DNA of 63,530 nucleotides, counting the filler, from Chrysochromulina tobinii (taxonomy: Eukaryota), in assembly GCA_001275005.1 (NCBI GenBank). It is 6 parts of 6 records of this genome, joined end to end, with 100 filler letters (N's around TTAATTAATTAA, not from the genome) between each part and the next. Parts side by side here need not be neighbours in the genome. Positions count along the whole stretch, not along the records: positions 12,002 to 26,602 come from JWZX01000194.1; 5 more parts are not named here. The stretch is one strand, 5' to 3'. This document shows positions 1 through 63,530 of the stretch, in pieces. Positions within the stretch are counted from its first letter, which is position 1, and every line of letters starts with the position of its first letter. The notes beneath the pieces are model-generated. The model was not told the origin of the DNA. It searched no databases and saw nothing but the letters and a program-made list of their open reading frames with translations. The translations under genes were made by a program, and so were the position numbers.

Positions 1-1341
1 TGCCGCGTCGGCCGCCGCCGCCCCGGCCGCCGCCGCGTCGGCCGCCATCGCCTCGGCCGCCGCCGCCTCAGCCGCAGCTGCCTCAGCCTCTTCTCTCGCC
101 TTTGCATTCTCGGCTTCTTCTTCCACGCGCAACCCAGGTGAATCTTTGGCAGACTCGAGCCTCTCGCCCCCAATCCCATCCATCAGCTCTTTCTCCTGCT
201 CAATCACTTTGTGCACAATCGGCGTCAGCTTCTGTGATGGAGGTCGGCCCGAGAAGCCGCCGAAAATAGAGGTCGCCACGCTGCCCGCAATGTTGTCTCG
301 TCTTCGCTTGGGCGACGGCAGGGATGGCTTCAAAGGTACAGCTTTGGGGCTGGAGAGGGTTTGGAGCAAATTGGCGAGCGAACCAGGTGGCGAGTTTGAC
401 GGGGGTACCACGACCAGGATTCCGCGCGGGCTCTCGAGCTTCTTAAAGGCGGGGATGGGCGCCTTGATCGACTTGTGATTGGTGACCATCTTCTCGCCTT
501 CCTCAATGTCGTGATCGAGCTTTGCCCGCCTCTCGCGCTCCAGCTGCTTGCGCTCATGGATACGGCGCACAGCGCTGCGCCGGGCGATCACGTCAGCTTC
601 CCTGGCGAGAGCGAGCCTCCGCTTCTTCTCAAGCACCTCGAGCTCCTCGGCCTCGCGCTCGAGCCGCTCGCGCTCGACTCGTTCGTGCAACTGGCGCTGC
701 CAGTCGCTGTTGCCTTTTGCAGCACTCTTGCTGTCCTCGGCTTGCGCGGGGTTCTCGTCCTTGAGCTCCTTATAGCCAAAGATGCACGGTAAGCAGCCGA
801 AGAGGCGTGGCAAGCACGAGCAAAGAAGCGCGGAGCATAGGAAGAGTCCCAAGATGAGCGGCAGGTATGCTTGGTACTCGCCCGAGAGCTGCTGGGCAAA
901 GATGAAGGCGTTGATTTGGGGCGACGAAGGAGGCAGCGGCGGCAACGGTGGGGGCGGAAGGGGCGGCGGCGACTGTGGGGGCGGAGAGGGAGGTGGCGAT
1001 GGTTCAGGGGAAGGCGCCGGAGGATAGGGCGGCGGCGATGGTTCAGGAGAGGGCGGTGTCGGCGGCTCGGGCGGGAACGGAGAGGGGGGAGGCGGCGACG
1101 GCTCGGGTAGGAGCGGGGAGGACTGCGGCGATGGCCTGGGCGGGAACGGCGAGGGGATTTGCTGTTGGTGCTGCGGATGTCGACCAGAAAGGTAATCTAT
1201 GGCGTGTGCATCCAGACCCTTGAGGCCATTCCCAACGGACCGTGCGCCAGGGTCGGAGTGGCTGGAATGGTTCGAATCGGCGAGCTCGTGATCAAACGGG
1301 TTGTGCAAATCTCCCCCCTCCACGGCATCGCTCAGAATCAT
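1..1341 (-). CDS. Pro-rich, single-TM, coiled-coil hypothetical protein (3' end runs off the window)
   Basis: Manually read minus-strand frame from ATG at 1341 to position 1; absent from the ORF track because no stop falls in the window. Contains a PSPPP-rich segment, hydrophobic YLPLILGLFLCSALLCSCL, a charged RERLEREAEELE coil and an Ala/Glu tail. Confidence 0.65.
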   Translation of the reverse strand, partial: MILSDAVEGGDLHNPFDHELADSNHSSHSDPGARSVGNGLKGLDAHAIDYLSGRHPQHQQQIPSPFPPRPSPQSSPLLPEPSPPPPSPFPPEPPTPPSPEPSPPPYPPAPSPEPSPPPSPPPQSPPPLPPPPLPPLPPSSPQINAFIFAQQLSGEYQAYLPLILGLFLCSALLCSCLPRLFGCLPCIFGYKELKDENPAQAEDSKSAAKGNSDWQRQLHERVERERLEREAEELEVLEKKRRLALAREADVIARRSAVRRIHERKQLERERRAKLDHDIEEGEKMVTNHKSIKAPIPAFKKLESPRGILVVVPPSNSPPGSLANLLQTLSSPKAVPLKPSLPSPKRRRDNIAGSVATSIFGGFSGRPPSQKLTPIVHKVIEQEKELMDGIGGERLESAKDSPGLRVEEEAENAKAREEAEAAAAEAAAAEAMAADAAAAGAAAADAA

Positions 1342-9318: not shown

Positions 9319-11640
9319 CTAAATGGAGGCGATGATCGAAGCCCGCTTGTCTTCGTATTCCTTCGCCGAGAGGATACTTTTCATAGCCTCGAGCTCAGCA
9401 AGTCGCTGCGCCGGGGTTTTCCGGGTGAGCGACTCAATCAAGGTCTGCTGTGCTGCCGCTGCTGCTGCGGCCGCCGCTGTGGCTGCTTCATTCTGAAGAG
9501 AAAGGACCTTGAGCTGGTGGGCATGCTCATCCTTGCGGGCATCCGCAGCCGCAGTGAGCTTCTCGCTCTGCCTTCGCTCCGAAGCTGCAAACTTGGCCTT
9601 CTGCGCATCCGCTGCCTTCTCAGCTGCCGCCGCGATGCTGTTCCCAAGTGAGGCGATGTCGTCACGGTCGCCACCCCCGCCATCACCCCCGCCGGTACGC
9701 TTTTCCTGTTGGATGCCACATGCCTTGGACATGGCAGTCATGTGCTCACGACTGAGGGTCGAGAGCCAGGTCATGTATGTCATGTGGTGTTGTGCCCAGT
9801 CGCCCAGCTGGCCGACGACGTTCGCAGTGTAGCCAGGCTCGTGCCGGTGGAAGGGCTCGTAGCCAACAAATACGAGGCCGCGCCAAATGGGCTTGAGCAT
9901 CAGCTCGGCGGCGGCGCTCTCCTCCATCTCCTCCTTCTCCATGCCTTTGGCGAGGTCCCACAAGTTGCTCTCGTAGTCGTCAAGGCACCCGATTGCGAGC
10001 ATCACGTCCTCGTTTGGCTCGCTCATTCCCACAGGGATCTTCGTGTGAATGAGGGTGTCATAGACAGACTTGGTCTTCTTCCGCTTCTTGGGGGGCCTCG
10101 CGCCTGTTGAGGCGTCTCCGCCGGAAGATGACTCTCTTGAGGGGAAGGGTGGTTTTGAGCGCTGTCCGCGAGGAGCATCGGCGCCTGCAGCGGCGCTCGC
10201 GCCGGGTGTGCCCTTCGGCTTGCCGCTCTTATTTCGGAAGGCCGATTCGACGTCCGCCTCACGACCTTTTTCCTGTGTCGCCTTCTTGTCCGCTTCGGCC
10301 TTGGCCTTCTCCTCGTCACGCTTGACGCCCTGCTCAAGCTCGATGAGCTTGAAGCAGTTCCTCTCCATCTCATTCTCCGCCTCGCCCTCACCGCTCTCGT
10401 CCGCGTGCGTCGTCGCGAACTTGAGCCTGTACGCGTCCATCAAGCTCGACCGCCGCGGTCCACCACCCTTCTTCTTCGTGCCCGCCCAGAGGTTGTTACG
10501 CAGTACCTCCCAATCACTCTTGTAGATGGGGAAGGCGTGCCGCATCTTATCGGCGAGCTGCTTCCAGGCGTTCGGGTTGCCCAAGCTCATCGCCGACGTC
10601 TTCTGGAAGAGCTTCTTGCCAATGTCGCGCGCCTCACGGCTCGCGGCCTGAAAGTATTCGAGCCCGTCCTTTGACGCCCAGGGCGGCCTGGTTCCGCTCC
10701 ACGCTGGCGCCTTGTGGCCCTCTCCCCTTTCACGCTGCGGCCGACCGTTGTTTGACGGTGGGGAAGGGTTGTCGTCATCGAGGCTGTTGTCGCTCCCCTC
10801 GTCGCCCTGACCGCCCTCCTCGTCGACATGATCACCCTGCTTACTCTCGTTGTCGACCTGATCATCCTGCTCATCATGGTCCATATGCAGAAACTCCTCC
10901 TCCTCGTCGCGCGCGTCTGAGTAGTTTGAGCTGCTGTTGCCATCCTCTTCGTCACCTGCAGGGAGATGGAACACATTTCTGAGTTCATCAGAGGCCATAA
11001 GAGATCATCAGATCAGAGGTCATCAGAGGCCATCAGAGGCCATCAGAGGCCATCAGAGGTCATCAGAGGTCATCTGCTTTTCGTCACCTTCGTGAAGATG
11101 GAATTGACTTTTAGGCACCTTGTGCACGGGTGAGACATCACGCATGCGGCGGCGGGCGGCTTCTTCCTTCTCGGCCTCAGCCTCAGCCCTCTGCTGCTTG
11201 GAATTGACCAAGCGTTCTGATGGCATACGGCGGCGTGCTCCTGATGCACCCGGGCGCGGACTCGACGCGCGCGGTGGTGCCCGGTGAGGACTCTTCAGCG
11301 GAGCAGCCAGCGGGCTAGCATGCCGCGAGGCCACGTTCGAGCGCGTGCCCGGCAGACCACTAGCGATTGACGGCTGCGGCAATCGCTCCGGTCCCGCGCC
11401 TGGTGCGTCTGCGTGCTCATGGGGCTTCTCGGCGTTGAAACCATGGCGCTCGGGCAGCTCGTCGACGTCAATGGCGGCCTCGACTGCTGGTCCGCGCTTC
11501 GACCCGCGCGCGGACGAGCGGCCAGCGGGCGCAGAAGGCTTTGAAGGCCCTTGCTCCTGCTCATCCTCGCTCTCCACAGCTTCCCTGCACCTTTGAAAGA
11601 AGCTTGGCCCATTCTGCTTCGCCTTCCTGGCCCTGGGCAT
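9319..11640 (-). CDS. Harbinger ORF2: Myb/SANT(trihelix)-like DNA-binding protein with SHOCT-like C-terminus; intron 10956-11087
   Basis: WKQLADKMRHAFP...LMDAYRLKF...ESGEGEAENEME..FKLIELE resembles the trihelix domain of Harbinger accessory proteins. Splicing GAAG|GT...CTGCAG|GT joins ORFs 11053-11640 and 9319-10998 in frame. Confidence 0.7.
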
Positions 11641-12964: not shown

Positions 12965-15900
12965 TCAAGCGCGCCGCTGGCTCTCAGCGACATGTACCGC
13001 AACTGCCGCACAGACCACGGCCTTCACCACGGCCTCCGCCATCAGCATCACCTCCGCGATCTCCTCGATCTCCTCGATCTGCGCGATCTGCGCGATCTCC
13101 TCGATCTGCGCGATCTCCTTGACCTCCGCGATCTCCGCGATTTGAACAGCCGCCACGGCCTCCGCCATCTCCGGCTCGAGCTCCGCCATCTCCGGCTCGA
13201 GCTCCGCCATCTCCGGCTCGAGCTCCGCCATCTCCGGCACGAGCTCCGCCATCTCCGGCTCGAGCTCCGCCATCTCCGGCTCGAGCTCCGCCATCTCCGG
13301 CTCGAGCTCCGCCATCTCCGGCTCGAGCTCCGCCATCTCCGGCTCGAGCTCCGCCATCTCCGGCTCGAGCTCCGCCATCTCCGGCTCCAGCGTCGGGGAA
13401 TCTCTCGTGCCCTCAACGGCTTGCACCACCACTTCTCCCGGAGCTTGCACCACCGCTTCCCCCGGTACGGCGTGCAGCCCTCCAGTCACGCCTGGCGGCG
13501 CGCCTGGTGGCCTGCTGGCAGACCTGCTGGCAGGCCTGCTGGACGGCCTGCTCGGAATATCTCGGGGAATATCTCGGGGTAAATCTCTGCTCGCTTGCTT
13601 GCTGGCAGGCCTGCTGGACGGCCTGCTCGGTATATCTCGGGGGAAATCTCGGGGGAAATCTCGGCCAGCCAAGCCGGGCGGCCTGCTGGGCGGCCTGCCG
13701 CTGGAAGGTCGGGAGGCGTGACGGGACGCGGTGGCGGGCGACCATGGTGTGAAGAGGCCGCCGCTGCTGTAGGTGGCGAGCGCGTCGTAGTAGGCACGGT
13801 TGCTCGGCAGCGGCGAGTGCTTGAGCTGCGCATGCAATCCCAGGAGCTTCATCTCCGATTTGGCCGAGATGAGCGCCGAGCTGAGCGTCGAGTGGTGCGG
13901 CAGTCCCGGGATGGGAAGTTGGCTGCTCTCCACCGATGGGTTGGGAGGTGCCGCCTTGAGGCCATCATACGAGATATTCCCCGAGATAGCCCTCGAGATC
14001 GTCCTGCTCTCCACCGATGGGTTGGGCAGTGCCGCCTTGAGGCCGTAAGCGTACACCGCCGAGGGTGGTCGGCATCGGACCAATGCGGGCCCATTGGGCG
14101 GCACCCAGCGCGGCATTCCAGGGAAGTAATAGCCACGTAGCTCCTCCGAAAGCGACGGCTCCGCTGGCGCTCGATTAGGCAACTCCGCTGGCGCTCGATT
14201 AGGCAACTCGTCCGAGTGATTGGGGTTAGTCTCGATTAGGCAAGTCTTGCAGGTCGTCCGTCTTGGGTGTTGGGTGCTGGTGGCGGCGGCGGTGCCAGGG
14301 CGCGCCGGCCTTGTCAGAGGACCCGAGGTGCCCATCCACTTGACGAAACTTGAGGGCGATCGGGTGGCGGCAGAGGGGGGGCGGGTAGAGGTGCCGGTAG
14401 CAGTCGATGGCGGACGGTTGGGAGTGTACGGCTGGCGGGTTGAGATGCTCGGAGATTGCACGAGATGACGAAGCTCGCCCATCAGCAGTTCTCGACCCTC
14501 GTCCTCCCCTCCCCCTTCCCCTCCCGCCTCCCCCCTTTCCGGCTCCCCCCTTTCCGGCTCCCCCCTTTCCACCTCCCAATCCCCCTCCCCCTCCCCTCGT
14601 CCACCTGCACGTACAGCATCCTCGCCAGCTGAGGCCCGAGCACCGCCGCCCTCGCCGCCTCCATCCGAACCTGACGGTTCCCCACAGCGTTCGCGATCGC
14701 CGCATCGACCTGCTCCTCCACCTTCTCCTTTGCACGCAAAGCCTTCGCCTTCTGCTCCTTTGCCTTCTCGGCCACTCTCTGCGCTCGCCGAGTGAGATCG
14801 CAATCAGGTGCAATCAGGTGCAATCAGGTGCAACCCATCGCAATCAGGCCTTCACGGCCACTCTCTGCGCTCGCGCCGGGTCACCGAGTGAGATCGCAAT
14901 CAGGTGCAATCAGGCCCCATCAAGTGCGATGAAGGTACAAAAGGTGCAGTCGGGTGCAACTACTCGTGGCAATCTCGTGGCACTGACTCGTGGCAATCTC
15001 GTGGCAATCTCGTTGCACTGACTCGTGGCAATCTCGTGGCAATCTCGTGGCAATCTCGTGGCACTCGCCTGCTCGAGCATAACGGCAGATTGAGATCGCT
15101 CGAGATGCACGATCTCCTTGAGGGGCGGCGCGTCGTCGTGGGCGTTCCCATCGAGCTCGGAACGCTCGAGCCAGCACTCAAGCTCAAACACGTCCACCTG
15201 TGATGAGGAGGGCAATCACTCGGAACGCTCGAGCCAGCACTCAAGCTCAAACACGTCCACCTGTGATGAGGAGGGCAATCAAGAAGTCATCTGATAGTAA
15301 TCAGAGTGACCAACCAGAAACCCACCATCACTTGAATCAATGACACTCACAGGCCATCATTGATGAGTGAGGCCATCAGCATGCAATCAGCATGCGATCA
15401 CTTGAATCAATGACACTCACAGGATTACACCGTTCTTGATGAGTGAGGCCATCAGCATGCAATCAGCATGCGATCACCTTTCTTGAGAGCTCGCCACCAA
15501 TCGAGTCGTGCCGCCCAGCCACGAGCTCGAACACCTCGTCTGCGAGTGATCGCATCTCGTCACGGTGCGCGGCCGAAGTGTTGCGAAACAGCGAGCGTAC
15601 CTAATGAAGGAAGATGAAGGAAGATGAAGGACTAATGAAGGAAGATGAAGGAAGGTGAAGGACCAATGAAGGACCAATGAAGGACTGATGAAGGACTGAT
15701 GAAGGAAGATGAAGGACCAATGAAGGACGCACTCAGACATCATGTCAGCGAGGCCACATCCTTCATTGGTCCTTCATTAGTCCTTCATTAGTCCTTCATT
15801 AGGCACACTCAGACGTCATGTCAGCGAGGCCACATCAGAGTATGCCATCGGGTATCGCGACACGTGAGGCAGTCAGCATGCAATCAGCATGCAATTACCA

Positions 15901-18900
15901 TGCGCCCAAACTCAGCCCGATCGAGCGCGGGAAGGGTGCCTTCGGTGCTCTTGTCATACGCGCGTACAAGGTCGAGGGTGGACACCTATAAAGAGGCGAC
16001 CGGGAGCAATCAGGAGGCAATTAGCATTCAATCAGGAGACAGCATGCAATCAGGGTGGACACCTATAAAGAGGCGACAGGGAGAGGGAGAGAGAGTAGTG
16101 GGAGGTAGAAGTTAGAAGTGCGAGTCACTCACTCCGTCTGATTCGAAAGTCGTGCTGACACCCGAGGCGTGCACTCAGGGGCGCTGAGTAATCAATGGTA
16201 ATCAATGGTAATCCGGCCATCACCTTCGCGCCCTCGAGGCTACGCCAGAGCTGCCGCTGAAATAGCGAAGGAGTCCAGTTTAATTGCTCGAGCGGGATAC
16301 TCCTCATCGGGCTGCCTAGTCGGCCGCTGCCGGGCGGCTGCAGCACAAACGCCTTCGCGCGCATCGCGCGCCGATCCGTGCGTCGGTCGAACGGATGGCG
16401 TACCTGCGCATGCATCGCAATCGGAAGCAATCAGCGCCATCAGTGCAATCAGCGCCATCGGTGCAATCAGCGCCATCAGTGCAATCAGCGCCATCGGTGC
16501 AATCAGCGCCATCAGTGCAATCAGCGCCATCAGTGCAATCAGCGCGTAAACCGCGGCACCACTCCCACAGCTGATGAGTGAGGTAATCAGCATGCAATCG
16601 GTCAAATGGAGAGGGTCGCGTACGCCGCGGCACCACTCCCACAGCTGATGAGTGAGGTAATCAGCATGCAATCGGTCAAATGGAGAGGGTCGCGTACGCC
16701 GCGGCACCACTCCCACAGCTCGTCGCCCTCGATCTCGCCGTCCAGATCGAAATCGATCTCCTTGAACACGTCATCGAGCACCCATGGCGTGCCCAAGAAT
16801 CGGAAGGACGCGCGCATGCCTGTGATGAGGGAGGCAATCAGATGCCATCAGCATGCAATCACAGAAGGACGCGCGCATGCCTGTGCACGATGGCATTCAG
16901 TGGCCATCAGTGGCCATCAGTCGCAACCAGTGGCCATCAGTGGTAATGAATCGCAATGAATCGCAATGAATCGCAATGAATCGCAATCACGGCACTCAGA
17001 GAGAAAGGGGGACCAGTGAGATTACAGTGAGATCAGTGAGATTACAGTGAGATCAGTGAGAGAACAGAGTCGTCGTCACTTTCTGAATGAGCGGCAATCG
17101 GCATGCAATCGGCATGCAATCGGCATGCAATCGGCATGCAATCGGCATGCAATCGGCATGCAATCAGCATGCCTGCATGGAACTGCATCACGTCCATCGC
17201 CGGGCTCGCGCCGTCTTGAGCGTCGATTAGGAGCCCTATCACATCGGACAGCATGAAGCCGCTCTGCCTCACATGCTCCTGCAGCTCCTCGCGCACCTGC
17301 ACGCATCGGAATCAGACGCAAGCTCACCGCAATCAGACCCAATCAGACCCCATCAAACCCAATCACACACCTTGGCGCAGTTGGCAGTTCGGTGGGAGCG
17401 TGCAAGCCGCTCCACCGCTCGCTTGGCCTCGGACTCGGCGCGCTTAGCAGCCTGATGAGGGAGGCAATCAGATGCCATCATAATGGGACTTCAGTGGTCA
17501 TTAAATGATCATCGATGGTAATGATTCAGGGCACTTAGGGGCAATCAGGATCATCAGCGGCAGAGCTCGCCTGCATCTCCTTGGGCGAGCATGCAACGCT
17601 CTGCTCGAGCCGACGGTAAGCGGCTGTCGCCTCTGCACTAGCCGCCTCGGCTTCCTTTAGAGCGAAAGCGCTCGGGGACTGCGTGATGGGCGATGGATGG
17701 ACGGATGGCAATTAGTGGCAATTAGTGGCAATTAGTGGCAATTAGTGGCAATTAGCGAAAGCGCTCGGGGACTGCGTGATGGGCGATGGGAAGATGGATG
17801 GCATCATCAGATGGCCACTCCATATGGATGGAGTGCCTCATTAGACTCACGTCGTGCCCCCGGATGCAATCAGCCTGCCATCAGAATGAAATCTGCATGG
17901 CATCGGCATGTCATCAGACTCACGTCGTGCCCCCGGATGCGCCACTGCTGATGAGCGAGGCAATCAGGCTGATGTGCGAGGCAATCAGACTCACGTCGTG
18001 CCCCCGGATGCGCCACTGCTGATGAGCGAGGCAATCAGGCTGATGAGCGAGGCAATCAGACTCACGTCGTGGCCCCGGATGCGCCACAGCTTGGCCCGCT
18101 CCGCCAGCGAGACTGTGCTCGAGACAGCGCCCTCGCTTGTTGCCCTTGCGGACTTGCACGTCCAGGCGAGCGCAATCAGGAAGCGCTTCGCCTCCATCGA
18201 GATGTCCGAGCACCTGATGAGGGAGGCAGTCAGAGGCAGTCAGAGGCCATCACAGAAGGACCCTTCGGCCTCAATGACCTCGGTGATGAGGGAAGCAATC
18301 AGATGCCATCAGAGGCAATCACAGATCGGTCGGTGCACCCTTCGGCCTCAATAGCCTCGGTGAGCTCCAGATGAGGGAGGCAATCAGATGCCATCACAGA
18401 AGGACGCACCCTTCGGCCTCAATAGCCTCGGTGAGCTCCTGATGAGGGAGGCAATCAGAGGCCATCACAGATCGGTCGCACCCTTCGGCCTCAATGGCCT
18501 CGGTGATGAGGAAGGCAATCAGAGGCAATCACATGCCATCACAGAAGGACGCACCCTTCGGCCTCAATAGCCTCGGTGAGCTCCAGATGAGGGAGACAAT
18601 CAGAGGCCATCACAGAAGGACGCACCCTTCGGCCTCAATGGCCTCGGTAAGCTCCTCGTAGCCGATCTCGCCTGATGAGGGATGCAATCAGATGCAATCA
18701 GATGCAATCACAGATCGGTGAGCTCCTCGTAGCCAATCTCGCCTGAGCGGTCTTTATCCAAAGATCGGAAGATGAACTCCGCGCGCGCGCTGAAGCCCAT
18801 GGCCTTGCACACGACGGCGAACTCGTCGCGATCGAGCAGCCCGCCGCGCCCCAGGTACGCCGGCTGCTGGTCGTACTCGCTGAAGGCCGCCTCGAGCGAC

Positions 18901-22260: not shown

Positions 22261-25200
22261 CTAATCCTGCTCCGCTGTTTCCGCCGCCGCGCCACCGGGC
22301 ATATCAGCTGCGACGGTGATTGCCTCTGATTGCCTCCGATTGCCTCCCTAATCACCAGACAGATCAGCTGCGACGGTGATTGCCTCTGATTGCCTCCGAT
22401 TGCCTCCCTAATCACCAGGCAGATCAGCTGCGACGGTGATTGCCTCTGATTGCCTCCGATTGCCTCCCTCATCACCAGGCATATCAGCTGCGACGGTGAT
22501 TGCCTCTGATTGCCTCCGATTGCCTCCCTCATCACCAGGTATATCTGCTTCGACGGTGGTGACGCGAAGCTTGCGGCTGAAGCTACTGCGAAGCAGAAGG
22601 GTGATGTCACGCATGCTCCGGTTCTGCATGCTCCGCCTCTTGAAGATGTGTAGCTTGGTAGACCCATGCTTCTCGCTGTGATCTTGCCACTTGGCCTGCG
22701 TATCTAACCTTGCCTCTTCTGGGCCGACCGCGCCGACGAGCCTGTCCGTGATCCAAACGGCGCAATCAGAGGCAATCAGAGGCAATCAGAGGCAATCCGA
22801 GGCAATCCGAGGCAATCAGACGAGCCTGTCCGTGATCCGAACGGCGGAATCAGAGGCAATCAGAGGCAATCAGAGGCAATCAGAGGCAATCCGAGGCAAT
22901 CAGACGAGCCTGTCCGTGATCCGAACGGCGCAATCAGAGGCAATCAGAGGCAATCCGAGGCAATCCAAGGCAATCAGACGAGCCTGTCCGTGATCCGAAC
23001 GGCAGGTCGTCAGAGGTCATTAGAGGTCATTAGAGGTCATTAGAGGTCATTCACACCTGTCCGTGATCCGAACGGCGTAACGGCGGAAGTCGAGGAACCA
23101 ACGGCCAGCCAGGCCGACGTTGCCCTCAGCATCGGGCTTGGTGTAGCTGCGCAGGTATTCCCACAGCGGCGTTTCGAAGATGAAGGTGAGGACCACGGGC
23201 ACGGCGAGGAGCGCTGGGAGCAAGACTTGCATCACCGGATCCTCGGGGTAGGCGTTGGTCACCAAGGAGCTGACCAACGAGAAGAAGATGATGACCTGCG
23301 CCACCTGTGCGATCAAGTCGTCTTCATCTGAAACGTAGGGAGAGTAGACGCAGTAGGCGCCGTACGAAAGAAAGCAGATAATCAACCCGAAGATGAGCTG
23401 CGGCGGCGACCCCGGCGGGAAGAAGATGGGCAGCCCGATGAGAGCGATCTTGCGCACGCATTCAAAGATCTCGAACCAGTACGTGCGGAGCTCGTAGCCA
23501 GCGGTCAGCTTGCGCAGCGTCGTCGGAAGCTCGCCGCGTAGATTCTCGAGGGCTTTCATGGTTGCCTCGCGCGCTTCAATGGCCCTGCGCACCATCTCGT
23601 CCACCTTCTCGGGAGTGGCCTCCGCCTCAGCCTCGAGCTTCGCGAGCTTAAAGTCTGTCTCTTGGGTGAGCTCGATGAGGCGCATCTCGTGAAGCTGGTG
23701 GCGCGCACGGTGGAACATGAGCGCATAGAGGAGGGGCACGCCGATGGGGTAGACGCCGAGCATGACGACGGCGTACGCGGAAAAGGCCTGGTAGAGAGGC
23801 TCCTGGCGGTTGATGGAGCGGTCGGCTCGCATCAGGTCCACGAACACCTCCCCATCCCCTTCATACGTCTCGCGCATGAAGAACATGAAGGTCATGTTCG
23901 AGCAGCTTGGGTAGACGAGGAAGATGATGAAGAACCACAGATCCGAGCACGCTTCAGCGAGGAACGCCCCAAAGCCGCTACCGCCAGAGAATGTGCTCAG
24001 GGCTCTGCTCAGGAAGACTAGCAGCACCACAAGTATGATAGGCGTGGCCGTCTTCAGGACGAGATCGAAGATGAAATTATTTAGCTGCGGAACCATACAG
24101 CCAAACGGCAGCAAGTCGATAGGAATGTTGATGTTCTCGATGGCTGCGAGGACTGAAGTGTATAAGGGGGGATACCGGACATTGAAGATCACGCCCAGCT
24201 GCGAGACCACCTGGCATAGGGAGATCATAGGGAGATCATAGGGAGATCATAGGGAGATCATAGGGAGATCGCTGCGAGACCACCTGGCATAGCGAGATCA
24301 AGATCCGGAGCTTCACCCCGAGCGGTCCCATGATTGACGCGACCCTAGCGCCGGCCGCCTCCAACTTCGTCGGAGTTTTATCCGTTACTATCGATAGGTT
24401 CGGAGAGCACACCAAGATCTTCTCATTGCCTGTCGTCTCCATCTCGATATCCCAGAGGGAGGCCTCGGCATTCCACCGGATCACTTTCGCGTGTACGCCG
24501 TTCAGGTCCTTGCGTTGCTGCATGCCCTGTACAAGGACGCGACGCCCCACGATCGCCTGGGCCTCGGCCGTCGAGTGTGGGTCAGTCATCTCTTGGGGTG
24601 ACGCGGTTGCCCCTTTGACCTCGTCTTCATCCCCCACTTCCGCCGGCTTGCCTGTGACAGACGCAAGCACGCCCTTTGCGATCGTGGTCGCTCTGCGCTT
24701 GCAAACAGCCATGGCCACCAAAATAGCGATCAGAATCACCGCGCCGCCAATAGCGTAGGCGATGATGGTGGTCTCGGGGTCGCCCGCGTCGGAGCACAAT
24801 TGGCAGGGTGCTCCGCGACCGCCAAAGTGCAGCGGATCCTGCACGCAAAGGTCGCACACCGGCCCAGTGTGACCGTCCACGCACGACGTGTCGCCCGCGA
24901 TTTCGCCGCCGAGGCACGCCTCCTCGAGGTCGCACTTTCGAACGTACTGCGCCCTCGGGTTCTGCCGCCAGTGGCCCTCCATGACGGGGATGGTGTCGAG
25001 CGTGACGCCTGGCGCGGTGCAGTTGGTCATCTCACCTGATTCTGAATGAATCCCTTCGCAAGGTTTACACTCGAAGGAATCTGCGGCGACGCGGCTGCTG
25101 TCGTTGGTAGCCCGCATCATCTCAGCACGTGTCAGGCTGGCGAACGTGCCCACCTCACACACGCATTGAGAGATTGAGTCAGCGCCTTCCTGTACCGTGG

Positions 25201-26602
25201 TCGTCCCAGGCACAGGGCATTCGAGGCACTTCAGTCCTCGAGTGTCGCCCGTCCAGTCCTTGTACGCGCCAGTCTTGCACGCGTCGCAGCGCACGCCGCC
25301 GATGAGCTCGCGGCCGGGCGCACAGACACATCGGGCGTTGCCCGCGGCATCGAGCTGCTGAATGAAGGTCTCTTGGCACAGGCATTGGCTGACGTGGGAG
25401 GATGCGGTGCCGTTGGTGGTTGAGAACTCGGGGCAGCGCACGCAGGCTGTTTGGCTGTTGGCGTTTGTGTTTGGGTTGTAGAAACCCAGCTCGCACGCCA
25501 CCTCAAGCCCGGCAGTGCACCAGAAGCCCCTGGGGCACACGCGCTCTCGAATGACGGTCACGGTCTGCTGGACCACGGTTGCGGTGGGTGCCACGAGGGC
25601 GGCCACAGACACACCGAGAGCGGCGCCGAGGACTGCGGGGTCGAGGTTGTTGAGAGCAAAGGATGGGGCCACGACGGGTGGGCCGCTCGTGGTGACGTTG
25701 CTCGTGGTGGCGTTGCTGGAATTGGTGCCCGGGCGCGGAGCGGTCGGATTCGTGGTCACCGTCCGAATGATGGTGTACGTGAGGACGGTGGAGCCAATCT
25801 GAAGCCGACGCCCAGCAGACGGCGGAGCCGCCGAAAAGTCGAGTTGCAGGTCCTGCCACGGAATGCCGAGCTGCGCGGCGAGGGTCTGACGATACTGGAG
25901 CTGCAGGGCCGTGTCGTTCAAGAAGGACGAGAGTGGCGCGTTGAGCGAGATAGAGCCCGTGATCGTCTCGACCGTCTGCGTCTCAACCGCGACCACCGGG
26001 GTCAACCCGCCCGATGGGAGAATGAGGGGCTGAGAGCCGGACGTATTGACGTCGTTGAAGTACCCAGGGCACGAGAAGCCCGAGGGGCACGGGATGGGAA
26101 ACACGCTCCCGGTCGGAGCCCAATAGCCAAAGCCGACTGGCACGCAGCCGTCTGCGGACTCGAGACCCGTCCGGTTGTTGAACTTACCGCCAGGGCACGG
26201 CACAGGGGTGGCGGCGCCCTCGGCGCAGTAGTAGCCCGGCGTGCACGGGCTGCACGACGTTTGACCAGCCAGCATTTGGAAGGAGCCCGGTGCACACTTC
26301 AGGCACGTCTCCTGCCGCGACCGGTTGTTGTACGTGCCCGGAGCACACGGCACCGCCACGGCCGAGCCCACAGAGCACGATGTGCCGACCGGGCAGGCGA
26401 CGCACTGATCGACGGACATCATCACACTCAGCGAGGCGTTCTTGTGCGTGCCGCCTGGGCACGGCAGCGCGGCCGCCGCGCCCTCGGCGCAGTAGTAGCC
26501 CGGCGTGCACGGGTTGCACGACGTTTGACCAGCCAGCTCTTGGAAGGAGCCCGCTGCACACTTGAGGCACGTCTCCTGCCGCGACCGGTTGTTGTACGTG
26601 CC
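22261..26602 (-). CDS. Cys-rich (GCC2/GCC3, ephrin-receptor-like repeats) multi-pass membrane protein, 5' truncated; introns 24211-24283 and 22742-23056; 3' end uncertain (22408 or 22261)
   Basis: Repeats CPxGxxC...CAPGTYN...CTPGYYC, then a TM region typical of this algal family (LRILISLCQVVSQL, YPIGVPLLY, YELRTYWFEIFECVRK, PYVSDEDD). Confidence 0.82.
22300..22558. repeat. 60-nt tandem repeat x4 (exon-derived segment plus GATTGCCTC units)
   Basis: ATCAGCTGCGACGGTGATTGCCTCTGATTGCCTCCGATTGCCTCCCTMATCACCAG repeats line by line. Confidence 0.95.
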
Positions 26603-26702
26603 NNNNNNNNNNNNNNNNNNNNNNNNNNNNNNNNNNNNNNNNNNNNTTAATTAATTAANNNNNNNNNNNNNNNNNNNNNNNNNNNNNNNNNNNNNNNNNN
26701 NN
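26603..26702. other. Artificial contig spacer
   Basis: N44-TTAATTAATTAA-N44. Confidence 0.99.
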
Positions 26703-29700
26703 GCATACGCGCGCTGAACCAGCCCGTCTCTGGGCCAGAGCTGATCACCGAGACCACCGTCGCAGGTCGCCAGAGCGTCGCCCCCTCCTCCTCGACCTCA
26801 ATCTCGACACGATCTCCCTCGCGCGGCCACCGCCACCCCGCGGGCGGCGGCGGCGGCAGCGGCAGCGGCGGCGGAAGCGGCGGCGGCGGCGGCTCATCCT
26901 GCGAGGCGCTCGCATTCGAAGCGCTCGCAAGCGAGGCGCTCGCATTCGAAGCGCTCGCATTCGAAGCGCTCGCATTCGGATTCTTGCCTCTAGGCGCTGG
27001 AAAGGACTCAAAGTCTTCGTCGGATGCCTCGGGCCTCAATCGTCCCTTGGCCGCCGCCTTGAGCTCACCCCTTTTGGCAATAGGAGAGGGCTTGGCGAGG
27101 GAGCCTTCCTTATTAGGAGAACCTTCCTTCTTTGGAGAGCTTCCCTTGGGAGCCGAGCAAGGCGCCGAGCCTGCATGCATGCATGCATTCGGTCCACCAA
27201 ATTTGGGCTGCGGCGCCGAGCATGCATGCCGCCGCACATTCGGTCCACCGAATTTGGGCTTATCGAGGCAATTAACGCATTGGCCGCAGTCGTCGAAGTG
27301 CTCTCGTCGTTCCGCGGCGCGCGCGCGCGCTTTGGCTGCCTTAGCCGCCTTGTCCACCTCAGCCTCGGCGGCGGCTTCCGTGACTGTCTTCTTGGCGAGA
27401 GAGCCTTCCTTATTAGGAGAGCCTTCCGTGACTGTCTTCTTGGCGACTGCCTTCTTGGTCGCCTTTCGGTCCGACGCCGCCTCCTCTGCCGCTGCCTCCG
27501 CCTCGGCCGCCTCGGCCGCCTCGGCCGTCTCCGACGCGGTCGCGCTCAGCTTGCGCTTGCCGCCGGTGCGTCGCCAGTCCTTGCCCTCCTCTTGCCACGT
27601 GAACCAGTCGACCCACTCGTTGTCGTGGAGCATACGCGCGCTGAACCAGCCCGTCTCTGGCCCAGAGCTGATCACCGAGACCACCGTCGCAGGTCGCCAG
27701 AGCGTCGCCCCCTCCTCCTCGACCTCAATCTCGACGCGATCTCCCTCGCGCGGCCACCTCCATCCCGCGGGCGGCGGCGGCGGCTGCGGCAGCAGCGGCG
27801 GCGGAGGCTCATCCTGCGAAGCGCTCGCGTTCGGATTCTTGCCACTAGGCGCTGCTGCTGTCTGTCTGGCCGCATCGCCCACGACAGCGCCATCCGCCGC
27901 CGCCTCCGACGCAGTCGCGCTCAGCTTGCGCTTGCCGCCGGTGCGTCGCCAGTCCTTGCCCTCCTCTTGCCACGTGAACCAGTCGACCCACTCGTTGTCG
28001 TGGAGCATACGCGCGCTGAACCAGCCCGTCTCTGGGCCAGAGCTGATCACCGAGACCACCGTCGCAGGTCGCCAGAGCGTCGCCCCCTCCTCGACCTCAA
28101 TCTCGACGCGATCTCCCTCGCGCGGCCACCGCCACCCCGGCGGCGGCGGCGGCGGCAGCAGCGGCGGCAGCGGCGGCAGCGGCGGCGGAGGCTCATCCTG
28201 CGAAGCGCTCGCGTTCGCATTCTTGCCACTAGGCGCTGGAAACGACTCAAAGTCTTCGTCGGACGCCCCCGCCCCCCCCTTTTTGGCTGCCACCTTTTTG
28301 GGCGAGCTTCCCTCATCAGGAGAGCCTCCCTTAGGAGGGCTCTCAGGCGCCGCATCTGCAGCCCTCATAAGGGAGGCTCTGATGAGGTTCTGATGAGGCG
28401 CCTCATCAGCATCCCGCGGTGGCACGTCCGATAGCCTTTCGTCGGTGACGGGATAGAGCTGGGCGGCGAGCTGGGCGGCGCGCTGGGCGGCGAGCTGGGC
28501 GGCGCGCTCCTCGGCCGTCTTGGCGGCACGCGCCGCCTCTTTGGCCGCCCGCTTCGCCTCAGCCGCCGCCGCCTTGTCCGCCGCCGTGGCCTCCGCCCCC
28601 TTGGCCTCGCGCTTGGCGGGAGCGGCCTGCAGTTCAAAATGGCGCGCGATCTCGACGCGAGATCGGAAGCGCTTTCCCTGCGCAGGTGGGGGCAGGGTGG
28701 GGCGGCTGAGGGCTCAAACACTGGCCTGCAGGGCTGTGAATATGAATAGGCTGTGCGCGCGAGGGCTGTGCGCACGATGGGATGGCGCCGCGCTCCCGCT
28801 CACCTGCGTGTTGAAGAAGTACGAGTCATAGGTGCCTGCAGTGGCGCCATTTTTGCGGAATTCGGTTTTGGTGTACCAGCCCGTGATCATCTCCGCCGAG
28901 CCGCCGCAGTGCTCGAGGTACTTGGCCAGTGACGCGAGGAGCTTTTCGGAGCTTTCGGGCGAGTCCGCATCAGCGGGGTCGAAGGAGGTACGCCGCTTCT
29001 TGGGCGGCTTCTCGGCGGAGGCGGACACAGTTGCCTCCACAGTCGCCTCCACGGCCGCCTCCACGGTCGCCTCCACAGTCGCTTTCTCAGTCGCTTTCTC
29101 AGTCGCCTCCACCGTGCTTGACTCTGGCGCTGCAGAGGGTGCAGTGAGCGCTGCAGAGAGCGTGCCGGCTCGGACCGCCGCAGCTGTTGCAATGAAGGAG
29201 GTGGCCGGCGCAGAGTAGGTCTGATAGATCTCCGGTAGCTGATAGATCTCCGGCAGGGGCGGGAAACTGACGTGTGGGCCGTTGTACGGCCTCACGAACT
29301 TGGGCGGCACCCGCTCCTCGATGCAACCGTTCACATACTCAATGTCGACTTTGCCGCCCGGATGACACGCGGTTATGCGACCGATACTCCAGCTCGTCGC
29401 CTGCGCACCCTGTTGCGCGAGGCTACACGCCTCCACGATGGTACCACGCTGCAGCGCCACCATGCTCGCCGCCATGAGGCACACACCTGTTGGTTGCGAC
29501 GAGTCTGGCTTGGAGCGTTTGCTTCGCCTTTCGTCTTCGGGGAATTGGTGGAGGCCGCGATGCATATCTGGCAAGGTACAGCCATAGGTGCCACAGAGAT
29601 CTACCCTCCTCGTCATGGGCTTGTCGCCGCCATCTTTGAAGTCGGGGAGGAGCACAGAGCGCAGAGGAATAGGTGCGTCAGCGCTCAGGTCGGCAATGAT

Positions 29701-31071: not shown

Positions 31072-34000
31072 ATGGTTGACTCAGTCATCACTCCCACGCA
31101 CTGGGCCGACAGCGTCGGGCTTGAGGGCGAAGATCGCCGCCGTTTCGAGCGCGAGCGGGCCCGGCAACTCGCGGCTGCCCTGCGCGCGAGCTATTCGGCC
31201 GAGGAGCCGTGCGCTTGGCTCCGAAGGGACCGTGTGCTGCTCTCAGTCAACCCTGGCCGGCCGCTGCCAGGCCTGCACGGCGACCGCTCATGTACGCAGC
31301 TGCTCCAGCTCGCCGTGTGGCGCGCTCATGCGCAGCGTGGCAAAGAGTCGCCAGCGCACCCCTTTGCTCTCGGCGAGGCGGCGGCGCAGCGGGCAGCGGA
31401 TGGTGGCAAGGCGTGCGTGTGCGTAGTTGGCGAGAGCGGCTCGGGCAAGAGCGAGGTGGCGAAACTCGTGCTGCTGCACCTGCTCGATTTGCCGCCCAAT
31501 GTTATGCACACGTACGCCGACCCCGACGCGGAAGCCGTCCGTGCGGGCGCCTCGGCTCACCGTGCGATCGGCGTTGCCGTCGTGCTCTCGCGAGGTCTCC
31601 TGGAGAGCTTCACACACGCGGCGACGCCGGCGAACCCGAACTCGAGCCGGCTCGTGCTCGCAACGCAGCTTTGGTTCAGCCCGGGCGCTTTCCTGGTCGG
31701 CGCGCGCTATCAGATGACGCTGCTCCAGGCGATGCTTGCCGGCCGTCCGCCCTCGCGCGCTCACTCGAACTTTCACGTGCTCCATGCGGCGGCGCTCTCG
31801 GCGAGCACCGACGAGCTCGGAGGCGTCGTGCCGAGCGAGCTGCGGCTGCTCGGCGGTGGTGGCGCCGGCGACGATGGCGACGATGGCGCTGGTGGCCCTC
31901 CTGCGTCCGCACGCGGCCGTCGGTTTGACGAGCTCAGCGCGGCGCTTGCGGCGCTCGGTATGGGAGCGACGTCGGTGCGCCGTCTGCGTGAGGTGCTGCT
32001 GGGGATGCTACTGCTAGGGCAGCTGGACACATGCCACCTGAGCCGCATCGGTGCCAACGGCGAGCCACCGCCCGCACCGAGCGTTGCCGAGGCGCGTGTG
32101 AAGCGCCGGTGTGAAGAGCTCATTGGCGACGGGTGCGACGTGCGGGATCTGATCCCTAGCGCTGTCCCTAGCGCTGTCCCGGGAGGCGGCGGTCGGCCGT
32201 CCCACCTCGCCGCCTTCACCGCTGACGAACGCGAGCGCATGCGCGCCCGTCTGATTTCCCGAGCGTACGAGCTGCTCGTGGTTGGTCTCGTGCATTGGCT
32301 GAATGGGGCGCTCGCGATGGTGGCTGCGCAGAGCCTCACTGACGAGTGGGCAGGCGGCAGCGGCGGTGGCGGTGCGCGCCGGCCCGCGATGGACGTGGCG
32401 TCGCTCGGCTCGGTCACTCTCCTCGACACTCCGGGACTCGAGGCGCTCGACACAGCGCCTTTTGGGCGGCGATCGGAGCGCCTTCCGAGCGCCGTGCCGA
32501 GCGCCGTGCCGAGCGCCGTGCCGAGCACCGGTACGTACGCCACGCTCATCGCCAATTACGCGGCAGAGCGGCTGCGCTTGGCCCTGCTCGGGGCGCTGCT
32601 GCCGCCCGCCGACACAGCGCTCAAGATGGACGAGGGCCTGGCCGTGGCCCTCAGCGGTGCCGATGCCGATGGAAGCACCAACGGAGGCGACGACGGTGGG
32701 CTCACGAACGGCATGGAGAGCTTGTTCACAGCGCTGCACACAGCGCCGGAGGGGCCGTCGACGGAGGCGGTGGAGGCGGCGCGTGTGTTTGCGCCTCTCA
32801 CCCCTTGGCTCTCCTCCGCCATCCCCGCCGCCGCCATCCCCACCGCCCAGCCCACCGCCTCCGCGCATGCTCGGGACGGCGCTCGCCCGCCGAGCGCCAT
32901 GCTGAGCGCCAAGTTCACCGTGGCTCACTACGCAGGCTTGGTCACGTACGACGCCGCTCAGATGCCCTTGCGCGCGCCGGCGGGCCAGGCTTCGCACGGT
33001 CTACGCCAGCACGAGCTCGATGCGTCCGTGCTCCTCGCCACCATCCAGCGACAGATCCACACAATCCTCGAGCCGCCCAGACCAGCCGCCGCCGCCGCGC
33101 GCGCTGGTGCCAAGGCCCAGCCTGGCCCGCCGCTGCTCAATGGGCTGGTTGTCGCACCCGAAGAAGTGGTCACTGCGGTCGATTCGATTGCCGACGTCCT
33201 TGAGAAGGGCACAGACGTCTCCTACATCCTGTGCCTCCGCCCGAGTGCGCGCGAGGCGCTCGCTGAGCTGCCGCCGCAACGGGCGAACGGAGGGTCGAAC
33301 GATCTGGACGCGTTGGCAACGCGCTGGGATGATGAGTGCATCAAGCGCCAGTTGGAGTCCTTTCGTGTCCTGGAGGGCGTCTTGAGTGCTGCGCGTCCAG
33401 ATGTGAGCTGTCGGCTGCCGTACGATGCCCTTGCCGCGCTGCTCGGCGACGGCCGCGGAGGCAGCGCGGGGCACGCTGGCGTTCGCAACGGGGCGCTCGC
33501 GGACCTGTCGATACAGCATTCGATGCTGCTGCTGCTGCTTGCATGCGGCGCGCCGCTTGCGGCGATTTCGGTAGGGGACGAGTGGGCGGCGTTGGGCGAC
33601 GGTGCCCCGGCGCGTCGTGCGCGCCGGTTGCTCTTGCACGGCAAGCCGGCCCTCGTGCGCTCGTTGGTGGAACAGTGCGAGCAAGCGCAGCGTGAGCCAA
33701 TGGCCACCCCTCCGATCCGGAGCAGAGGGGGCGGCAGCAGGGCTAGAGGCTTGCCTCCAAATGCATTACTCGAGGCGCTCTTGCAGCAGGTGGACGCGGT
33801 GGCCCCGTGCACTAACCCTCACCCTCACCCTCACCCTTACCCTCACCCTTCACCCTTACGTTTCCCCACAGGTGGACGTGGTGGCCGGGGATGATGGCGA
33901 GATCGCCTCCACCGTGAAGGGCACCACCGCCCCTGGTTGGGCAACCACGCCATGGCCGCATCGGGTGCTCTCCACACGCGACACGCCGGTGTGCGGGCGA

Positions 34001-34948
34001 CGCTCGGGGCCCTAAATACCTGCATGCGAGTGCTCACCACGACGCCCTTGCTCCTCTCCCCACAGGTGTGCGAGCGACGCTGGGGGCGCGCTTTCGCCCG
34101 TTTGAGCGCCGAGGCACCCGACGGCCGCCTCGAAGCCCTCGAGCTGAGTGACACGCAGCCTGGGGTGGAGCCGCTGCAGGCCGTGCAACTAGCGGCGGCC
34201 GCACCAGCACAGCGGGCGCTCCGCCGGCGTGTGCTGGCGGCGCTCGCCGATGCAGCACCGCCCCCTGGGCTCGCCTCGGTGGCGATGCGTGGAGTGGGCC
34301 TCGGCGATGCCGAGCGTCAGTTGCTGCTGCGCCTCGTGCGTCACCACCCACGACTGGCGACGCTGGACATCCGTCACAACGCCCTCTCGCCGCCAGCCGT
34401 TGAGGAGCTTGGGCGCCTCGTGAGCGCGTGTAACCGCGAGCGCCTCGCCGCCGGCATCGCGGCGCCACTCACCCTGCTGTGCCAGCCGATGCTTGCGCGC
34501 CCTGCGCTGGCCGGCGAGGCGGGTGGCCAGCAGCCGCGTTTCGGTAGCGCGCAGCACTGGGGCACGCGCGCCCTCGTGTACGCCGCGTTCGCCCTGCTCG
34601 CCGCCCTCACCGTCGCGGATGTGCGCTCGCTCCATAGCTCCATCTCAGCAGATCTGCCTCACTCGCCGGCAGGGCGCCTGTGGAAAGGCTCGAAGGGTCT
34701 GCAGTGGCCCGCGATGCCGCCGCCGCCGCCGCCGCCCCCGCTGCCACCGGGCTCTCTGCCGCCTCGACGTCTGCCGCCCTCGCCGCAGCCGCATCCCCCT
34801 TCACCGCCCGTGCCGCCTCCCATGCCCGATGTGCCCCTGCCCTCGTGGATGGCCTCGCTTATCTCAGCCTTTCAGCAGCCGCCGCTGCCGTCTGCGCCGC
34901 CGCAACCCGCACCGCCTCCTCCTCCGCCGCCGCCGCCACCGCCGCCCC
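31072..34948 (+). CDS. Divergent myosin motor domain + RNI-type LRR + TM + Pro-rich tail; introns 33790-33871 and 33989-34065; 3' truncated
   Basis: Myosin landmarks in the correct order: LLSVNP, VVGESGSGKSE, NPNSSR, NFHV, LLDTPGLE, NYAAERL, VAHYAGLVTYD, YILCLRP and QLESFRVLE. These are followed by LATLDIRHNALS and hydrophobic ALVYAAFALLAALTV. Confidence 0.78.
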
Positions 34949-62543: not shown

Positions 62544-63530
62544 ATGGCGTATGCCTGCGACCACGAGGGCTGCGGCAAGCGCTTCTTGCAGACGAGCGAC
62601 CTCACGAGGCACAAGCGCACGCACACGGGCGATCAGCCGTACGCCTGCGAGCACGAGGGCTGCGGCAAGCGCTTCTCAGAGTCGGGCAGCCTCACGAATC
62701 ACAAGCGCACACATACGGGCGAGCGGCCGTACGCCTGCAACCACGAGGGCTGCGGCAAGCGCTTCTCGCAGTCGGGCAGCCTCACGAATCACAAGCGCAC
62801 GCACACGGGCGACCAGCCGTTCGCCTGCGAGCACGAGGGCTGCGGCAAGCGCTTCACGGAGTCGGGCCACCTCACGAATCACAAGCGCACGCACACGGGC
62901 GATCAGCCGTACGCCTGCGAGCACGAGGGCTGCGGCAAGCGCTTCGCGGAGTCGGGCGCCCTCACGGTGCACAAGCGCAAACACACGGGCGAGCGGCCGT
63001 ACGCCTGCATCCACGAGGGCTGCGGCAAGCGCTTCTCGCAGTCGGGCCACCTCAAGAGACATATGCGCACAAGCTCGCATGGCCAGTGCAGCCACAATGC
63101 GCCGGAGCACCTGTGTGATGACATCGAGTGCGTCCAGCGGCGGGACATGTTCCGCCAGCTCGCTGTGTACTTTGGCCTGCAAGAAGCCTGCTCGCCAGCA
63201 GCGCGCCCAGCGCCTGCAATGCTCCGATCAACGCCGCAGCGCTCGGGTGACAGCAGCCGCAAGCGCCCACAGGAGGCCGAGGACTGGTACGAGGACGAGG
63301 AGGGCATGCAGCTCGCTGTGGCCCTGTCGGCCTCCGTCACAGACGCGGGCCTTCCCGATGAAAGGCAACAGCGGCGGGACGGCGGATGGGCTCGCATGCA
63401 AGGCGCTTCTTCCAGCTTCGACGTGGAGCATGCTGGCAACAGCGACGAGTTGGATGAGGTGGAGGTGGAGGTGGAATTGGAGGAGGAGGGTCCTTGCTTC
63501 GGCTGCTGCTTGGGCGGGGAAGTGACCTTG
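62544..63530 (+). CDS. C2H2 zinc-finger protein (6 tandem fingers) + UIM-like motif + possible PHD start; runs off the window
   Basis: Manually read frame not in the ORF track: (Y/F)ACxHEGCGKRFxxxxxLxxHxRxH x6 with TG(D/E)xP linkers, EDEEGMQLAVALS and terminal CFGCCLGGEVTL. Confidence 0.9.
   Translation, partial: MAYACDHEGCGKRFLQTSDLTRHKRTHTGDQPYACEHEGCGKRFSESGSLTNHKRTHTGERPYACNHEGCGKRFSQSGSLTNHKRTHTGDQPFACEHEGCGKRFTESGHLTNHKRTHTGDQPYACEHEGCGKRFAESGALTVHKRKHTGERPYACIHEGCGKRFSQSGHLKRHMRTSSHGQCSHNAPEHLCDDIECVQRRDMFRQLAVYFGLQEACSPAARPAPAMLRSTPQRSGDSSRKRPQEAEDWYEDEEGMQLAVALSASVTDAGLPDERQQRRDGGWARMQGASSSFDVEHAGNSDELDEVEVEVELEEEGPCFGCCLGGEVTL

Follow-up and report, generated by a model that had tools for sequence, protein, structure and literature searches.

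A 73-nt spliceosomal intron in a Chrysochromulina tobinii membrane-protein gene, likely made in place from its own exon

The window analysed here, a 63,530-nt stretch of the Chrysochromulina tobinii genome with filler included, carries on its minus strand a membrane-protein gene whose two long exons are separated by a 73-nt GT..AG segment (Table 1). The upstream exon, which falls within an ORF call at 24236..26650, encodes Cys-rich Ephrin_rec_like repeats (PF07699, E 1.4e-21), one TM helix and a cytoplasmic stretch, and RNA contigs run unbroken across 24271-24839. The multi-pass membrane domain encoded by the downstream exon matches no Pfam family. A 91%-identical protein, P0001, additionally has FG-GAP repeats, and the gene appears to belong to an FG-GAP / Ephrin_rec_like / multi-pass membrane family. 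Its best named homologues are Chrysochromulina tobinii proteins, and identity to paralogous loci of the same cultures reaches 90-98%.

Several features of the surroundings deserve mention in their own right. A 219-nt in-frame segment of the upstream exon (24386-24604, minus strand; 73 aa, matching no Pfam family) has no canonical splice ends, is contained in the window's RNA contigs and in P0001 and P0002, and is missing from the related locus L003; it is an indel of a small cytoplasmic module. Runs of N at 26603-26650 and near 28700 interrupt the upstream exon and the next gene (26647-28713, minus strand), which encodes three long near-identical protein repeats (GWRWPREGDRVEIEVEE...).

Read on the minus strand, the 102 nt from 24299 to 24198 resolve entirely into local sequence. 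They open with a 29-nt exon segment, S (GATCTCGCTATGCCAGGTGGTCTCGCAGC, 24299-24271), continue with units of an 11-nt sequence, U', and close on the remainder of a second copy of S, giving the layout S + 4xU' + U' + S[12..29], where U' is the first 11 nt of S with a G>C change at unit position 7. A string built by script from window slices equalled the observed string at all 102 bases (102/102), which bears out two claims of the earlier note on this DNA: that every base of the insert comes from duplication of the 29-nt junction segment and expansion of its first 11 nt with one G>C change, and that no foreign DNA is involved. TRF placed the array at 24215-24270 (period 11, 5.1 copies, 100% matches), and a repeat search of the window returned a 30-nt direct repeat of 97% identity with a spacing of 73. 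The two 29-nt copies are identical at 28/29 positions, and both carry CAG/GTGG (the slash marking the splice junction). No second occurrence of the 22-nt double unit was seen in the window, with 0/100 shuffled controls holding any match, and among 49 fetched loci the array and the intron start are present in L001 and L002 alone; array copy number beyond the locus is gauged from the window, these 49 loci and one depth figure.

Excision of the 73 nt yields ...KLRILISLCQVVSQLGVIFNV... / ...KLRILISLCQVVSQLGVIF... and restores the family-conserved peptide KLRILISLCQ/VVSQLGVIF, which equals P0001, P0002 and L003 at the junction, so that the exact restoration of exon sequence announced in the earlier note holds. 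The length is not a multiple of 3: read-through of the insert gives ...LCQVVSQRSPYDLPMISL and then a stop, after 15 codons, whereas without it an open frame of at least 773 codons continues into one of 387. The cut can slide over 22 nt, and the sole canonical pair in that range is GT(24283)/AG(24211), in phase 0; the plus-strand description of the same cut is 'CT..AC (cut +13)'.

Table 1. Features of the 73-nt insert, its host gene and other inserts in the window (positions count along the window)
Feature	Coordinates	Strand	Description
Upstream exon	24284..26602	-	Open frame up to a run of N; ends ...KLRILISLCQ
Copy 1 of 29-nt segment	24271..24299	-	First 16 nt exon, last 13 nt (GT at 24283 on) the intron 5' end; donor source
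73-nt GT..AG phase-0 intron	24211..24283	-	13 nt of copy 1 + five 11-nt units + GCCAG
Array of five identical 11-nt units, GATCTCCCTAT	24216..24270	-	Each is exon GATCTCGCTAT with G>C; rich in pyrimidines, with a TGAT motif
Copy 2 of 29-nt segment	24198..24226	-	First 16 nt close the intron (acceptor CAG); last 13 nt open the downstream exon
Downstream exon	23057..24210	-	Multi-pass membrane domain, from VVSQLGVIF... to ...AVRITD + AG of Arg codon
Intron 2 (sequence prediction)	22742..23056	-	315 nt, GT..AG, phase 2, after ...AVRITD/R
60-nt units	22293-22558	-	4.4 copies; exon-end-like CACCGTCGCAGCTGATATGCCTG, then GTGATGAGGGAGGCAATCGGAGGCAATCAGAGGCAAT (GTGATGAGGGAGGCAATC...)
132-nt GT..AG intron (predicted)	10956-11087	-	Flanked by 10-nt direct repeat AGGTGACGAA, which gives the donor

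Further inserts lie in the same gene and elsewhere in the window. Predicted intron 2 starts GTGTGAATGACCTCT(AATGACCTCT)n. Inside it the exon junction GGATCACGGACAG/GCTCGTC recurs intact three times, in each case ahead of CTGATTGCCT arrays of 10-nt units, with an overall period of 84 nt; the counterpart of intron 2 in locus L004 measures 157 nt and has one internal junction copy, and P0002 and P0028 run ITDRLVGAVG unbroken at this site. The 60-nt units are in frame (20 codons), with TAG in copies 3 and 4, and number four in the window, two in L004, one in L003 and none in P0002 or P0028; they may be an intron, a coding repeat or both. Neither intron 2 nor the 60-nt-unit insert was found in the paralogues. 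At 11087-10956, the predicted 132-nt intron is filled with GATGACCTCT/GATGGCCTCT arrays and ends TTCCATCTCCCTGCAG, and its removal joins 241- and 544-codon frames; judged from its sequence, it looks like a mobile-intron (Introner-type) insertion.

Short-period repeats are a wider feature of the window. The motif GATGAGSGAGGCAATC occurs 25 times against 0.12 expected, with 19 copies on the plus strand at 15.2-18.7 kb (15200-18700) and others at 22338-22533 on the minus strand; many copies sit within tandem units of 63-145 nt, which include exon-like sequence as well. There are 23 arrays of period 10-11 with at least three copies in the window, and 9 of these contain TGAT/ATCA. We also pursued several leads that were rejected. 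The sequence ATCTCCCT, common to the array of the 73-nt insert and the 3' end of the 132-nt intron, was considered as a family mark, and a pattern search gave 0 matches, so the sharing is treated as a pyrimidine-tract coincidence. A CTGATGAG-like motif was ruled out as a hammerhead by an Rfam search of the window, which returned no Rfam families. A window scan for other repeat-flanked, frame-restoring GT/GC..AG segments gave mostly false leads: 33872-34065 consists of two neighbouring acceptor sites, 62645-63004 appears by eye to be a 90-nt zinc-finger-like repeat on its reverse strand, and the GC..AG candidates are located in GCG-rich repeats. The 90-nt period repeat extends over 62560-63120, and its plus strand resembles, by eye, a C2H2 zinc-finger array.

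Mobile introns with target duplications are described in this lineage in the account of PMC9860276, which makes a cargo-less Introner event the main rival to an origin of the 73-nt segment in place. The insert would then be a by-product of an insertion or aborted insertion, in which an unusually long target-site duplication of 13-29 nt gives the splice sites and the cargo is missing or has been replaced by an array grown from the duplicate. As presented by Gozashti et al. (2022, PMC9860276), Introners of Chrysochromulina sp. create 4-bp duplications, with the element carrying the 5' splice site and co-opting the 3' site; the 73-nt insert shares with them the genus, a similar size (their example is 70 nt) and a flanking duplication that supplies one splice site. 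The 132-nt intron with its flanking repeat and 10-nt arrays would fit such activity, as would intron 2, which opens with family-like 10-mers and closes on a copy of the upstream exon, and the TGAT/ATCA found in 9/23 of the period 10-11 arrays, as in that of the 73-nt insert. Introners are, however, multi-copy elements with a foreign core and 3-9 bp target-site duplications, according to that paper, whereas all 73 nt here come from the flanks, no foreign base is present and the 29-nt duplication far exceeds that range. Nor are there many near-identical copies at different sites: own locus (L001/L002) aside, the array appears nowhere else in the window or the 49 loci, and in the DNA-like run X4 a contig of pure array has a depth of 90, about twice single-copy, as this locus alone would be expected to give. 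We consider a mobile-element by-product improbable at this site.

Support for treating the segment as an intron comes from six RNA runs compared at the locus (X1, X2, X3, X14, X15 and X16), the evidence being assembled contigs and not reads. Three of the six skip exactly 73 nt, by one contig each (X1, 847 nt; X2, 777 nt; X14, 404 nt), with 0 mismatches on both sides of the gap, and in these runs the short form is the sole one assembled. The joined contig links 23920-24197 to 24271-24839; the skip as placed in the contigs, 24198-24270, is equivalent to 24211-24283, and a shift of +13 brings it to GT..AG. Contigs of X3 (24005-24244 and 24281-24839) enter the insert from either side with no joint, and those of X15 and X16 do not bridge the site, so splicing may be incomplete, and the contigs give no ratios.

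Run X4 is labelled 'DNA?', and we take it as DNA because its depth is even over the insert and pieces shared with paralogues stand at multiples of that depth. Its contigs over the insert (23920-24244, 24219-24255 and 24241-24526) have depths of 45.7-48.5, as do the exons, and none branches to a short form there. The two metagenome assemblies L001 and L002 carry an identical insert and hold only the insert-bearing form. The insert is thus absent from RNA contigs and present in X4, L001 and L002, in agreement with the intron proposed in the earlier note; retention in mRNA, which that note had named as fatal to its proposal, is not what the RNA contigs of X1, X2 and X14 show. RNA and DNA runs alike are coded 'mixed culture' and date from nearby years, possibly from one campaign, so they do not count as independent.

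The boundaries of the segment (24283-24211) are the GT...AG of a spliceosomal (U2-type GT-AG) intron, with a 5' splice site, GTGGTC, that is far from GTRAGT. The intron is 67% pyrimidine and contains TCTCCCT runs and TGAT motifs; a strict YTRAY match was not seen by eye. Going by these motifs, the array could be the source of a putative branch point and polypyrimidine tract, and the G>C change would lengthen the pyrimidine run. The RNA fold of intron plus flanks was no stabler than shuffles (z = +1.35), which argues against a structure-based mechanism.

Direct repeats of this length are a classic substrate for template-switch artefacts. The segment might accordingly be no intron at all, and instead a frameshifting minisatellite in a dead or dying gene copy, with an allele that lacks the insert, or template switching by reverse transcriptase over the 22-nt exact repeat, as the source of the short RNA; the long form in X3 RNA would agree with this, as would the derivation of all RNA evidence from assembled contigs. 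Template switching is nevertheless unlikely to leave the short form as the only one assembled in three runs, without mismatch over 404-847 nt, and with 31-letter words the joined contig cannot come from a collapsed 22-nt repeat, so that reads of the joined form should exist. In X4, the exon-to-insert contigs are unbranched, and an insert-free allele with these flanks was not seen. Both flanking frames, moreover, are fully open (at least 773 and 387 codons), and the sole GT..AG pair lies exactly where the contigs skip. A non-intronic repeat is therefore very unlikely, and we continue with a spliced intron.

To place the insert among its relatives, we used the 49 related loci, scoring the 36 that start at residue 1 of the downstream exon and leaving out the other 13. 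Of those scored, 29 have a 0-nt gap at the site, two are the window's own locus with its 73-nt gap, and five gave no motif match. The 29 insert-free loci include at least seven paralogue types on contigs of 38-85 kb in the same culture assemblies; in X4, a 70-nt contig at a depth of 138 is the insert-free junction of VVSQLD paralogues. A regex for the uninterrupted junction motif matched 15/26 homologous proteins and not the other 11. No paralogue was found with any intron at the site, and an ancestral, unrelated intron shared by paralogues, which the earlier note had allowed could overturn its reading, is not borne out.

Closer relatives narrow the comparison. A FastTree analysis of 19 rows groups the window with L003 and P0001 (support 99) and places P0002 as sister to that clade (support 100). 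P0001, an 1865-aa IMG gene call on a 27.7-kb contig with 91% aa identity, reads straight through the site and ends ...ITDRCE, that is, by read-through into intron 2, so its lineage has intron 2 and not the 73-nt intron. P0028, an 88% relative with a 2339-aa ORF on a 13.3-kb contig, reads through both sites. These two serve as unspliced ORFs provided that the gene callers leave introns in place, which we assume for both calls.

The closest relative, L003 (96% nt identity; 47/1155 nt and 12/188 fourfold sites differ from the window), has neither the insert, nor intron 2, nor the 219 in-frame bases. L004, 99.6% identical to it, has intron 2 in its 157-nt form, and at L003:1293-1295 a stop codon, TAG, stands where the window and L004 have TAC (Tyr). 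L003 may be a retrocopy, a cDNA contig or an assembly error; we therefore downgraded it as an intron-free orthologue and do not count its lack of the insert.

Leaving L003 as ambiguous, relatives without the intron comprise 29/36 loci, P0001 and P0028, and the direction of change points to gain. The description 'very young' given in the earlier note stands, on the strength of absence from the 91%- and 88%-identical relatives, the five identical units and the 28/29 copy identity, and no finer dating is possible. That an old intron was instead lost by all relatives, acquiring its likeness to the exon later through local conversion or slippage, is very unlikely: precise intron loss is common in many lineages, as noted in PMC3629103, yet the intron would have had to be lost precisely and independently in P0001, in P0028 and in at least seven lineages of paralogues, and all 73 bases must have been overwritten by flank sequence.

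Taken together, these results make it likely that the insert, which consists only of flank copies and is lacking in RNA contigs and in the related gene copies, is an intron of recent birth. We consider it quite probable that 24283-24211 is a GT-AG spliceosomal intron made in place by duplication of a 29-nt AG/GT exon segment and growth of an 11-nt, five-unit array, with no foreign DNA, and the insert is likely a rare clean example of an already known intron-making route. Writing S as UV, where U is its first 11 nt, the event would have begun with a 29-nt tandem duplication (UV to UVUV), followed by G>C in the second U and then by slippage of U' from one copy to five, which would lengthen the insert from 29 nt to 73 nt, a size in keeping with the other small introns of the genus. 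Alternatively, everything may have happened in one error-prone, repeatedly templated repair synthesis. The G>C change is common to all five units, so it either preceded array growth or arose in the first copy of one multi-round templated synthesis. The stepwise course has to accommodate an intermediate of just 29 nt, which would shift the frame and is probably below the size that can be spliced; that the array expanded 'to reach a spliceable length', as the earlier note put it, is one interpretation, and the succession of steps is as conjectural as any selection on length or on pyrimidine content.

The duplication itself follows the Rogers model, in which, as outlined in PMC4974935 and PMC3265369, an AG/GT exon segment is duplicated so that copy 1 provides the donor and copy 2 the acceptor while the protein is unchanged. 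Here, an AGGT-bearing exon segment is duplicated across both splice sites (29-nt copies, 28/29), and splicing restores the ancestral coding sequence, the junction peptide being that of P0001, P0002 and L003. The ATP2A1 intron (2011, PMC3265369; PMC4974935) shows the same arrangement in the accounts of those papers: an AG/GT duplicate, donor in the first copy and acceptor in the second, the same protein and a fully identified source. Unlike that case, the primary duplicate here is only 29 nt, most of the length is taken up by a nested array of five 11-nt units with one base change, and the haptophyte event looks recent, against about 500 Myr.

The closest precedent lies in fission yeast, where the introns of SPOG_01682 and SOCG_00815 are tandem 24-nt exon repeats in the description by Zhu & Niu (2013, PMC3629103). 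In both cases, a short unit that derives from the exon and contains a proto-splice site is repeated in tandem; the yeast introns have the support of spliced ESTs. The yeast introns consist of one 24-nt unit (AGGC), with splice boundaries given as uncertain in that description, whereas the present case has nested periods of 29 and 11 nt, a canonical AG/GT, contigs of three RNA runs that skip exactly 73 nt, and a broad bracketing by paralogues; the nested 11-nt array is the new element. The potato RdRp intron, as reported by Ma et al. (2016, PMC4974935), likewise became a new intron by recent tandem duplication, with gain established by phylogeny and an identified source. That duplication, however, spanned an intron-exon boundary and re-used the signals of an existing intron, whereas here all signals come from coding sequence with no intron nearby. 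For haptophytes, the literature searched gave no array-filled or exon-derived introns beyond PMC9860276, and such arrays may already be described elsewhere.

More tentatively, the alga may make introns without mobile cargo, by a lineage-specific duplicate-and-array process acting at AG/G coding sites, with 10-11-nt arrays grown from the duplicated target; we regard this as a possibility well short of an even chance. If it were true, three inserts (24283-24211, 23056-22742 and the 60-nt units at 22558-22293) would have been gained within ~6% silent-site divergence while the sister lineage kept a single 7-kb intron-free ORF, and the 73-nt intron would be a stage caught before sequence decay.

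The question of how spliceosomal introns originate is an old one, and, in the assessment given in PMC4974935, there are few proven recent gains for which the source has been identified. At this locus, each base of a likely working intron can be traced to its own exon, its removal is seen in RNA contigs, and the gain is bracketed by paralogues and close relatives. The case shows that a very short duplication and microsatellite-type growth can suffice for an intron, and constructs with 0-5 units and G or C at the changed base would form a simple series on the minimum length and signals for splicing. From the neighbouring inserts of the gene there is a hint that the lineage undergoes such events repeatedly.
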